Origin: a virus
Lineage: Duplodnaviria > Heunggongvirae > Uroviricota > Caudoviricetes
Reading direction: 5' to 3' (one strand)
DNA: 13,293 bases
IMG/VR virus record: IMGVR_UViG_2711768048_000003
This document shows, one piece after another, positions 3,001 to 6,000 of the stretch. Numbering within the stretch: position 1 is the first letter of the stretch; each line of letters starts with the position of its first letter. The position numbers were made by a program.

Positions 3001-6000
3001 GTTGTGTATTTTCAGCCTGCAAGAATACAAACACTGTCTTCATGGCATACAAAGGAATTCATAAGCGGTAAACCAAACAGACAGTTTATTGCCATAACTC
3101 AGGGACAAACCGGTGGTGATACATGTCCAAACGTTCAAATATGTATTGATGGTGCTCAGAAGCAATTAGGAAAAGCCGATGAAATCCTATCATATAAGAA
3201 CACAACATTCTTGGTGTACAACAAACCAATTGAAACAGATATAAAGTAATTTAATGCAAGAGAGGGATATTTCCCTCTCTTTTTTATTAATAATTCCCCT
3301 CAGAAAGGAAGCTGTAAACCCCGGGACCACCTGCAATATTACATGTCCACGCCTTTGGTTGTCCTGAAGCAGGTGCGCTATTGATAACGCGTTCGCCTAT
3401 ATCCCAGAAACCGGATGTAGGTACTGACGAAAGATAAAATGTTGTTTTTTCAACTTGTAACGCATTTGATGGCATTCCATATACACAAAGAGACGGTGAG
3501 TTTATGAGTACATTTCCTGAACCATAATTTCTTATGCCAACATTTATAGCTGTAGCCGTTGCGTCTATATACACACCACAACTAACATAGCGCCATTTCC
3601 CATTACCAGCTAAAGGTGCTGTAGAGTCTGTTTGTCCTGCACCATTAACTATAAACATAAGTTTTGACGCTGCTCCCTGGTCATTTACCCACGCACCAAA
3701 CCATACAAATTTCCCTTTTAGTTCTGGTGATTTGTTGAGGTCTATCGTTCGTCCCCAAACTCTATCTCCTGTCGTAACTAAGAATGAATAATTACCAGCA
3801 TAGATGTTTTGAGTTTTTATCAATGTTCCTGTGGTTCCAGATGTCGCGGTCCAGAGCAACATATTTCGATCAAGATAGTTAGCAGTTAACTCTCTGTTCG
3901 CAATATCTATTAAATGCGCAGTGTCAGGGTTTTGTGTCGCCGGGTCATAACTACCAACGTATCCTATGGAGTTCACTGTGTTGTTGGCAAGATATAGCCT
4001 GTCAGTAACTTTGGACGAAAGATTATTGTGGTACATTGCTAATAAATTATTCACTTTCGATACGTCTAATAACTGATTATTTTCAATCGTCAGGTTTTTC
4101 GCATAGTTCGTGAAAATAAATCCGTCTTGGTTAGGTAGCGCGCTGGCGTAGCCAATCGCGGTCTGCTGATTCCCGCGAATAGATACGGTATCATTAATTT
4201 TTGAAAGGTCAGGAATTAATGTAAAATTGTTCGCGATAAGGTGGATATCCGCACGTACTGTAATAGACTCAGGTACACTATACGGGTAACCAATCTCACC
4301 GTTGCGTTCCCAATAGTTATCATCAAGGTTAAGGCCTTTAACCCCGTAAGCCAAAAGTCCGTAGAACTTATTTTGCTCTATATTGTTGCCATTAACTCTG
4401 ACGCTCATACCGCCCTCAGCGTAAGCTGGCGTAAGTAAAACTCCACCGGCTCCGTTACCATAGATACGGCTGTTGATTATATTAATATTATTGCAGAAAC
4501 CACCAACATTAATACCGTTACCGGCGTTTTGAAACAACCGGCACCCAATGATGTCAATGGAGTAACCGTTAACTAATATTGCGTTGTTATTAGTATTAAC
4601 CACGTCAATATTTTCTATTTTAATGTGGTTGGCTTCAGTAAGACTGATGCCGTTAGCTGCGTAGCCATTTCCGTCAAGACCAAAGTCCCTGAACTCGCAG
4701 AACGCAATTACCCCATCTTGTTGCGTGATTATCGGTGCCGCTGTACCCGTAGAGAAAATTCTGGACTGATATGCGCCAGCACCTCGTATCATGGTGACAG
4801 TATTCTTAATCGTAATACCAGGGTCAACAATGAACGCCCCCTCTGGTATAACAATCTCAGTTGGCAACGTAGCATCATCAATAGCCTTCTGAAATGCAGC
4901 TTTGTTCTGAGCACCGGTGTTTCCCTCAGCAAACCCGTAGTCTGTAAGCGTCCTCAGGTCGATAGTTAGCTTTTTTGAGAGAATGGTCGATGTGCTATCG
5001 ACAAACTGTGGGTTATGCATGACTAGAGAGTCGCCAAGTGAGTGATCTTCGCTCAGGAGATTGCCCTTAAACTGATCTGGATCATACTTTAGCACATTCG
5101 GAAAATAGAACTGCTGCGCACCGTATGCATCATAAACAGCCATAGAATGGCCTTGCACAGTTACGAACTTGGCAATCTGTCCGTTATATACAGGGTAACC
5201 AGCAGCGTTAATGATGATTGGTTGCGAAACAGGAACGTGAGAGCCGTCTTCGTTTTCCACATAAACCTGAATCTGGTTTTCAGGATTTACCGGGTCCGTG
5301 TCAATTTTACCGATATAAATTTTGCCATTAGTTACGGCTTTAAAAGAACGCGCCATAGTGAAGAGTTGCGAAGGCATGCTTACCACAACATTTGCGGTGA
5401 TATCTGACATTTCATTGCTCCAGACGAATGATATGATGCAACCATGATGTGATTGCATACCGAAATGGTACTATTGAGTATTTATCCAGTAGGTTACGAT
5501 GCCATTCCACCCAACTGGTGAGGCATCAAGGATGTACAGCAAATACGACGAGGCGCAGTTTCACTTGAGACTTCCGCATGAACTCCACGCGAAAATTAAG
5601 CAGCGTGCGAAGATGAATAACAGGTCGCTGAACTCAGAGATAATTGCAGCGATTGAGGAATCATTGGATAAACAAAGCTCTGCATCAGTTTACATTGACG
5701 ATGCAGAGCGTATGGCAGAACAACAATCTGATATGGTTAAGAAAATTGTCTTTGATACGCTCAAGAAGCTATATAAAAAAGACAGCAGATAACCATCCGT
5801 TACGGAGGATTTATGCACAGAGATATGCTGAATATTGCGTTCTACATATTTGGTTTTTGCACGTTCCTGGTGTTTGCAAAGCTATTCTGACAACGCATCA
5901 GACTTAGCCCCCTGCGTCAGGGCGTTAATGGCCTTTTGCGCCTGCTGCATGGCTTTCTCAAACGCTGTTGATCCGCGTGGGGTGTTTGCCATTCGGAGCA

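Follow-up and report, generated by a model that had tools for sequence, protein, structure and literature searches.

Here we describe a 25-codon open reading frame (mini-ORF) in a P22-like Escherichia coli prophage carried on IMG/VR virus record IMGVR_UViG_2711768048_000003 (Caudoviricetes), a DNA stretch of 13,293 nucleotides (nt) that we refer to as the window. As judged from its codon-level conservation, the mini-ORF is a genuine conserved protein-coding gene whose peptide is under purifying selection. It is strictly linked to one type of the gene 16 ejection protein (gp16), and its homologue in the Salmonella prophage BTP1 lies inside a cloned fragment that confers superinfection exclusion. 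From these findings we infer that the mini-ORF is translated into a membrane-resident peptide, that this peptide and not the RNA is the effector, and that it acts directly on gp16. The reading we favour, and consider probable on balance, is that of a minimal superinfection-exclusion peptide acting on incoming gp16 in the manner of SieA, the P22 prophage-expressed inner-membrane protein by which ejection of DNA is blocked (Leavitt et al. 2024, PMC10883804).

The window element is a P22-like (Lederbergvirus; Sf6/IME10-like) E. coli prophage, of which an identical copy resides at the argW-intS site of strain EC26; there the Prokaryotic Genome Annotation Pipeline (PGAP) calls mnt and the ejection gene and leaves the mini-ORF unannotated. 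The mini-ORF occupies 5813..5890 on the plus strand, from ATG 5813 to TGA 5888-5890, and a GGAGG Shine-Dalgarno (SD) sequence at 5804..5808 precedes its start codon with a 4-nt spacer (ATTT). It starts 20 nt after the TAA stop (5790-5792) of mnt (5532..5792, plus strand), which encodes an 86-amino-acid (aa) repressor of the Arc family with both the Arc-type ribbon-helix-helix N-terminus (Pfam Arc PF03869, 7.5e-15) and the Mnt C-terminal domain (Repressor_Mnt PF11423, 8.9e-15); PGAP annotates the same protein. At its 3' end the mini-ORF overlaps by 9 nt the convergent gene for a 797-aa ejection (DNA-transfer) protein (5882..8275, minus strand), whose TAG stop is the complement of 5882-5884. This protein carries an N-terminal SLT domain and belongs to the type of Sf6 gp13, phage L gp16 and BTP1 STMMW_03891, and its residues 725-737 (IIGYGTAMNPATT; 6065..6103, minus strand) are homologous to BTP1 gp16 583-595 in a gapless C-terminal alignment. 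The interval between the ejection gene and the tailspike gene (3287..5413, minus strand; Pfam Head_binding 4e-67) forms the accessory (sieA/immI) slot, and gp20-, gp7- and needle-type genes come after the ejection gene.

The initial annotation of the window had described an unannotated 25-codon ORF with a GGAGG site 4 nt before ATG 5813, on the strand of mnt, 20 nt from its stop and overlapping the ejection gene's 3' end, and all of this proved accurate. Its placement of the P22 sieA and immI genes in the same interval was borne out as far as sieA, which is found there in P22 together with mnt; the mini-ORF itself sits in the sieA/immI slot. The peptide (MHRDMLNIAFYIFGFCTFLVFAKLF) consists of a polar head, M-x-R-D-L-L-N, followed by about 19-21 hydrophobic residues. 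The grand average of hydropathy (GRAVY) of this hydrophobic core is 1.9 in the window peptide and 1.9-2.35 across variants, over 19-21 residues, in agreement with the single hydrophobic helix proposed earlier. From its composition, the stretch is predicted to be of sufficient length and hydrophobicity for one membrane-spanning helix.

Short ORFs are frequent, and 31 ORFs of at least 20 aa overlap positions 5000-6800, so that a length of 25 codons alone is within chance. We judged the mini-ORF to be real because its frame is intact in all loci that could be assessed and because the ratio of nonsynonymous to synonymous variation (pN/pS) is 0.25-0.36 in this frame only. As circularity was to be avoided, loci were selected solely by the last 120 residues of the ejection protein, independently of the mini-ORF. 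Among the 80 E. coli-type IMG/VR loci gathered in this way, 79 were long enough to assess and 79/79 carry an intact 25-codon ORF, while an intact 23-codon ORF, preceded by a GGAGG-like SD, is found in 80/80 BTP1/L (Salmonella)-type loci. Both types together thus yield 159/159 intact ORFs with an SD, with lengths of 23-26 codons, and the conservation in related prophages that the initial annotation had proposed to check is evident. Nearly every family member retains a GGAGG-like SD 3-4 nt ahead of the ATG, and the sequence farther upstream is wholly context-dependent.

The ORF occurs in 89 distinct DNA versions of 72, 78 or 81 nt, i.e., differing by multiples of 3, and its frame is the only one of six without stops in every version. 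Variable sites are distributed over the three codon positions as 15/9/18 (25-codon class) and 15/6/21 (23-codon class), and pN/pS is 0.36 and 0.25, respectively, the lowest of the six frames. Pooled pS is 0.67 compared with a pN of 0.16, and across classes synonymous divergence is near saturation. For instance, Arg3, Leu6, Ala9, Leu11, Gly14, Val17 and Gly18 are each encoded by 3-5 synonymous codons; within the 23-codon class all four codons occur at Gly14 and Gly18, CGT, AGA and CGA at Arg3, and five codons at Leu11. Were the ORF a chance product, some function of the DNA or RNA of the late-operon strand, such as a terminator or an element of the 3' untranslated region, would have to explain why the 70 nt following the ejection gene are conserved; the near invariance of the 3' two-thirds of the ORF DNA within the E. 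coli class could be cited for this. However, synonymous sites are near saturated while frame, start, SD and residues are kept, the other frames contain stops, and neither an Rfam match nor significant structure was found in the region. The codon-level analysis thus leads us to reject the chance-ORF and DNA-element readings, which we regard as scarcely credible.

Homologues were found in E. coli, Shigella phage Sf6, Escherichia sp., Citrobacter, Kluyvera, Arsenophonus and the Salmonella phages L, ST64T, SPN9CC, S9-5, MG40 and BTP1, and the mini-ORF DNA is present in 297/5426 complete E. coli genomes. The peptide reads MQRDLLNIAFYIVGFCTFLVFAKLF in Sf6, where the ORF is intact between gene 13 and the tailspike gene and mnt is missing, MQRDMMNIAFYIFGFYAFLAIVNLF in Escherichia sp. 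E1V33, MERDLLNFALLLCGVVVGKLLFA in Citrobacter, MNRDLLNFAFLIFGICVGFALFA in Kluyvera, MDRDLLNIAFFILGYFAFIMVEHLFR in Arsenophonus, MNRDLLNFAFLIFGIVVGRLLFA in phages L, ST64T and SPN9CC, and MERDLLNFVFLIFGLVVGKLLFA in BTP1 and MG40. The family is defined here by the pattern M-x-R-D-(L/M)-(L/M/I)-N-x-A-(F/L)-x-(I/L)-(F/C)-G plus a hydrophobic tail, in 23-26 codons, which the window peptide fits and which was matched in 242/251 loci examined. Across an alignment of 16 representatives, M1, D4, N7, L24 and F25 are invariant, and R3, F10 and G14 are conserved in at least 90%. The mini-ORF is annotated nowhere in RefSeq/PGAP or in any phage record examined, an exact look-up of 8 peptide variants among about 15 billion proteins returned none, and five variants gave no match at E<=10 in Pfam, NCBIfam or PHROGs. 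We rate the peptide family as new, unannotated and unusually small, and as belonging to a known kind, that of prophage membrane proteins blocking genome entry.

The distribution of the mini-ORF follows the ejection gene. The family as defined here has the mini-ORF convergent with a gp16 gene ending in ...QGAKS(D/E)ALSE and overlapping its stop by 9-12 nt, as is the case in the window (5882-5890). When IMG/VR was searched with a degenerate DNA pattern, 64/65 assessable matches were scored as gp16-convergent, and the last one, too, has a gp16 variant as its neighbour. The C-terminal 114 aa of the window ejection protein share 98% identity with Sf6, 66-72% with L, BTP1 and MG40, and 38% with P22 gp16. 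By megablast against phage genomes, the match to Sf6 sets in one base ahead of the ATG, at window position 5812, and continues into the ejection gene, and similarity to Sf101 spans the tailspike N-terminus and mnt and stops at about 5800. In Sf101, the gene after mnt is an ejection-type gene of another kind and the mini-ORF is lacking; the Sf6, BTP1, MG40, Citrobacter and Kluyvera loci have the mini-ORF without mnt upstream. The mini-ORF is absent beside the other gp16 types of P22, Proteus V3, MS2 LVA, HZ41, APSE-1 and Vibrio 1.061.O, and sieA was found in none of the mini-ORF phages examined. P22 sieA ends 22 nt past the gene 16 stop on the opposite strand, i.e., in the slot and orientation of the mini-ORF. 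Beside the distant gp16 relative of Vibrio phage 1.061.O, two annotated ORFs of 59 and 41 aa (L168, 1291-1576) occupy the slot and orientation of the mini-ORF, convergent with gp16 and before a tail gene, and are unrelated to it in sequence.

A comparison of upstream contexts across about 230 loci revealed at least three common arrangements, each with its junction at or just before the SD/ATG. These are mnt followed by a 20-nt gap, a lipoprotein gene followed by a 21-nt gap, and a spacer of 93-96 nt to the divergent tailspike start (Sf6, BTP1, MG40, Citrobacter, Kluyvera). Rarer contexts include phage L, in which the opposite-strand orf62 lies between mnt and the mini-ORF, and a spacer of about 225 nt elsewhere. 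In mosaic phages, joints of recombination that coincide with gene boundaries usually mark functional modules. By these sequence comparisons, the mini-ORF travels with the Sf6/L/BTP1-type gp16 gene and not with mnt, whose association is incidental. The earlier designation of the gene as repressor-linked is accordingly abandoned. The upstream lipoprotein of 161 aa (MKKSLLIIPLLLAGC...) is encoded 21 nt before the mini-ORF on the same strand in about 29 E. coli-type IMG/VR loci, e.g., L018 (about 2264-2779, plus strand), L117, L128 and L135, and the L018 copy lies downstream of another mnt allele. It matches phrog_6067, whose function is not known, and has no Pfam match; possibly it is a second lysogen-expressed surface or exclusion factor in the mini-ORF operon.

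Functional information comes from STnc6030, a minus-strand transcript expressed by BTP1 lysogens from D23580 nt 403942-404727 (Owen et al. 2020, PMC7067206), with a length of 786 nt by RNA sequencing (RNA-seq) and about 500 nt by Northern blot (PMC7067206). It was published as non-coding because no ORF of more than 60 aa is present (PMC7067206). When expressed from a constitutive plasmid promoter, STnc6030 abolished plating of BTP1 and left plating of P22 unaffected, and the titre of spontaneously induced BTP1 was unchanged, which the authors flagged as unexplained (PMC7067206). Four unique escape single-nucleotide polymorphisms (SNPs), clustered at nt 404041-404078, all alter the STMMW_03891 protein (PMC7067206). 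Mapping of coordinates and cloning primers places the BTP1 mini-ORF at 404250-404321, within STnc6030 and within the pPL-STnc6030 insert. No other ORF of at least 20 aa starts with ATG on that transcript strand, and the mini-ORF carries a GGAGG SD. The escape cluster corresponds to codons 583-595 of the 655 of BTP1 gp16 (ILGIGTVTNPALV).

The BTP1 and window loci are homologous. In both, the mini-ORF is convergent with a homologous gp16 3' end (65-70% aa identity over the last 120 residues), and the BTP1 counterpart (MERDLLNFVFLIFGLVVGKLLFA) belongs to a lysogen-expressed locus conferring phage-specific superinfection exclusion. They differ in that the BTP1 peptide has 23 residues compared with 25 in the window, at 50% identity, and in that the BTP1 transcript starts inside the tailspike gene, whereas in the window mnt lies between the tailspike gene and the ORF and is the probable source of the promoter. 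The BTP1 publication did not take the mini-ORF into account. A 2025 review still calls STnc6030 an antisense RNA, the SieA study (PMC10883804) does not mention STnc6030, and our literature search found no paper tying the STnc6030 locus to a peptide.

In the reading we favour, the prophage would make a 25-residue single-pass membrane peptide during lysogeny, translated in the window from the last cistron of the mnt transcript and in Sf6/BTP1-type phages from a transcript starting on the antisense strand of the tailspike gene. Located in the inner membrane, the peptide would block DNA delivery by superinfecting P22-like phages with the same gp16 type, interfering with a glycine-rich hydrophobic stretch near the gp16 C-terminus and so stopping completion of the DNA conduit; gp16 725-737 (6065..6103) is the putative target in the window. 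From the same slot, it would do the job of the unrelated 164-aa SieA in P22. An entry block is suggested by the unchanged induction titre and the gp16 escape mutations of BTP1; with a block at that stage, the resident prophage could still be induced and its virions assembled, and, as we propose, P22 is spared because its gp16 is of another type. This is the simplest account of the findings as a whole, including escape by single gp16 amino-acid changes and the inseparability of the mini-ORF from the gp16 3' end. It also agrees with one option of the initial annotation, a small superinfection-exclusion membrane peptide, which fits the published genetics of the homologous BTP1 locus. More specifically, STnc6030 exclusion may be the work of the 23-25-residue peptide itself, acting as a one-helix analogue of SieA that might imitate, or be left over from, its last helix, that jams the glycine-rich C-terminal segment of its cognate gp16 in the inner membrane and is encoded overlapping the gene of its target; we see this detailed version as evenly poised between right and wrong.

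The comparison with SieA bears on the proposed target. Escape from SieA requires the gp16 changes G532W and P546S plus changes in gp20 (PMC10883804). In an alignment of the P22 and BTP1 gp16 C-termini, P22 G532 corresponds to BTP1 gp16 G576 and P546 to V589, so that P546 falls within the STnc6030-escape cluster and G532 lies seven residues before it. Pairwise amino-acid diversity in the escape stretch is 0.18, compared with 0.08 in the rest of the gp16 C-terminal 120 residues. The diversity of BTP1 gp16 583-595 (L083, 1425-1463) was taken over 55 distinct sequences, among which synonymous variation is normal. Higher natural variation in this stretch would fit diversifying pressure from an exclusion factor, a weak signal that is confounded by linkage and phylogeny. 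A second signal of this kind, suggestive only, is the adjusted mutual information (AMI) between peptide helix variants and gp16 segments, which rises to 0.21 at the escape cluster from 0.07-0.09 in the flanks. SieA and the mini-peptide share the slot and orientation, immediately convergent with gene 16, and the SieA escape mutations lie in and just before the gp16 stretch altered in STnc6030 escape. However, SieA has 162-164 aa and three predicted helices and the mini-peptide 23-26 aa and one helix, escape from SieA also needs gp20 changes, and SieA excludes phages with several gp16 types (P22, L, Sf6, CUS-3; PMC10883804) whereas STnc6030 spared P22.

We also compared the sequences of the two proteins. 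The SieA family PF26849 gave no match to the mini-peptide at E<=10. The peptide resembles the last predicted helix of SieA over 17-19 residues, with 37% identity, a BLASTP E value of 0.013 and an hhalign probability of 7%; SieA residues 129-147 (L085, 1656-2147, minus strand) align with peptide residues 5-23 (LLSIAIFIFSVFIKIVFGR against MLNIAFYIFGFCTFLVFAK), and BLASTP and profile comparison both point to this same helix. Similarity at this level is common between hydrophobic helices, and we therefore do not claim homology to SieA; what these tests leave is a resemblance between transmembrane helices. Small membrane proteins of phages and prophages that stop genome entry of related phages via the injection machinery include HK97 gp15 and T4 Imm. 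They share with the peptide the proposed role, a block to genome entry of related phages; they differ in being several-fold larger, unrelated in sequence and not encoded convergently overlapping the gene of the presumed target.

Several observations weigh against an entry-blocking peptide. The published data are compatible with either peptide or RNA, and the SNP positions agree with the antisense model too. All functional data come from the BTP1 homologue, whose peptide shares 50% identity with the E. coli version in the window. That four of four escape SNPs are non-synonymous has a chance probability of about 0.21 and is not significant. The co-variation of peptide and gp16 is confounded by linkage and phylogeny. 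The gp16 target stretch in the window has a GRAVY of only 0.77, and helix-helix contact within the membrane is therefore conjecture. A consensus scan found no canonical promoter in the intergenic regions of BTP1 and Sf6.

The published alternative is that the transcript from this slot, reaching into the ejection gene 3' end, acts as an antisense RNA, pairing with the late mRNA of an incoming phage and destabilising it, translation of the mini-ORF having no part in exclusion or only shielding the transcript from Rho. The transcript was indeed detected by RNA-seq and Northern blot and excludes upon plasmid expression (PMC7067206), the escape SNPs lie inside the complementary region, P22, without nucleotide similarity there, escapes exclusion, and the window has the same geometry, with the mini-ORF strand running on antisense into gp16. 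However, induction of the resident and fully complementary prophage is unaffected, which the authors could not explain (PMC7067206), and escape through one mismatch within about 310 nt of perfect duplex would be a weak route. Moreover, the peptide is under purifying selection (pN/pS 0.25-0.36), which a purely cis-acting role of translation would not require, and the escape sites lie in or next to the stretch holding the escape sites of SieA, a protein-based system. Synonymous diversity in the escape 'seed' codons is not reduced (0.58 compared with 0.44 elsewhere), i.e., constraint at the RNA level is not seen; a cis-antisense RNA needs no seed constraint, so that its lack does not refute the RNA model. 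Taken together, we consider an RNA effector rather unlikely, and an RNA with dual function at the STnc6030 locus is possible.

The mini-ORF could also encode a genuine small membrane protein that lysogens express for a different purpose, unrelated to the exclusion seen in BTP1, possibly a lysogenic-conversion modulator of a host membrane protein or transporter, or convergent transcription through the slot could tune tailspike and late-gene expression. In bacteria, numerous small membrane proteins act as regulators of larger ones, and the mini-ORF follows moron-like genes in some contexts (mnt; the phrog_6067 lipoprotein). Removal of sieA was reported to improve tailspike synthesis after induction (PMC10883804), and slot transcription can therefore affect late genes. 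Such a role leaves unexplained, however, the absolute linkage to one gp16 type and the exclusion conferred by a clone whose only SD-led ATG ORF is the mini-ORF, and we hold it to be quite improbable. The initial annotation had further raised the possibility of a type I toxin, an addiction or an abortive-infection module. In such a reading, the peptide would be a membrane-depolarising toxin kept in check by antisense late-operon RNA or by linkage to mnt. Size and hydrophobicity resemble Ibs, ShoB and TisB, and as with the type I toxins Ibs, Ldr, ShoB, TisB and Hok, a short hydrophobic peptide lies opposite a potential antisense transcript, here from late-operon readthrough. But the mini-ORF differs from these in having no toxin family match at E<=10 (Pfam, NCBIfam and PHROGs hidden Markov models), no Rfam antitoxin RNA within 5000-6500, a strong SD that is unstructured and not sequestered (fold z about +0.5 relative to shuffles), and no toxicity apparent from the BTP1 data. 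Cells with the constitutive plasmid transcript of the BTP1 homologue tolerate it, still plating P22 and producing BTP1 normally (PMC7067206), and escape maps to an entry protein. The toxin proposal thus did not withstand comparison with these data, and we regard it as very unlikely.

Irrespective of mechanism, the mini-ORF extends the set of conserved coding genes of P22-like phages, among them the models Sf6, L, ST64T and BTP1, and its presence within STnc6030 illustrates that the absence of an ORF longer than 60 aa is not proof that a prophage transcript is non-coding. An entry-blocking peptide would remove the paradox of STnc6030, namely that a resident prophage is unaffected by the RNA it makes, and effector and target specificity would be inherited as one mosaic unit. 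If the peptide is the effector, it would be, to our knowledge, the smallest superinfection-exclusion protein described. A peptide of 23-25 residues that halts a trans-envelope DNA conduit would in that case be a tractable probe of gp16 and gp20, whose working is a question that the SieA study (PMC10883804) left open.

Regarding expression in the window, mnt is the probable co-transcription partner of the mini-ORF, as proposed in the initial annotation: the ORF directly follows mnt, and neither a terminator-like site nor a stable hairpin was found between the two by consensus scan and folding. A promoter-like site on the plus strand upstream of mnt (CTGACA-17-AATGAT, 5404..5432), identified by consensus match, is a weak candidate for the start of an mnt/mini-ORF transcript; the number of promoter-like matches in the region is not above that in shuffled sequence. 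The site overlaps the tailspike start codon at 5413, which raises the possibility that the promoter of mnt is interleaved with the translation start of the tailspike gene and recalls how Pant and Pmnt are arranged in P22. The mechanical tailspike ORF starts at 5458, and the conserved start MSDITANVV corresponds to ATG 5413. BTP1, Kluyvera and Citrobacter share a conserved TATAAT about 30 nt before the mini-ORF ATG; as no -35 element stands at the proper spacing, we do not claim a promoter there. The fold of 5770-5900 is no better than that of shuffled sequence (z +0.52), with no stable structure over the SD, and an Rfam scan of 5000-6500 returned nothing meaningful.

Further downstream on the mini-ORF strand, inside the ejection gene, an RNA hairpin (GGAUUGAAGG/UUUUCAAUCC) at 6163-6188 (plus strand) folds with -27 kcal/mol in context (z -3.8). 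It sits about 275 nt beyond the mini-ORF stop, near where the 3' end of STnc6030 would fall by homology. The BTP1 counterpart of this position does not fold, and the hairpin was dropped as a candidate for a conserved terminator. In Sf6, a terminator-like site (L001, 1847-1861) is found near the position of the window hairpin.

Beyond the mini-ORF locus, the window carries an O-antigen-modifying lysogenic-conversion cassette beside the tailspike gene (450-3249), composed of gtrA (PF04138), a gtrB-like glycosyltransferase gene (PF00535) and a 506-aa ORF without Pfam hit; in the otherwise identical locus of strain EC26, an acyltransferase is found in place of this gtr cassette. The other end of the window holds an Sf6-type tail-needle gene (10770-11618), a short ORF with no assigned function (11618-11869, minus strand), an ORF with a NinE C-terminus (11856-12236, minus strand) and the anti-RecBCD gene abc2 (12546-12839, plus strand). 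Genes for head, portal and terminase would be expected at 10770-12839 but are missing, and the prophage therefore looks rearranged or deleted; it still has mnt, the mini-ORF and the gtr genes.

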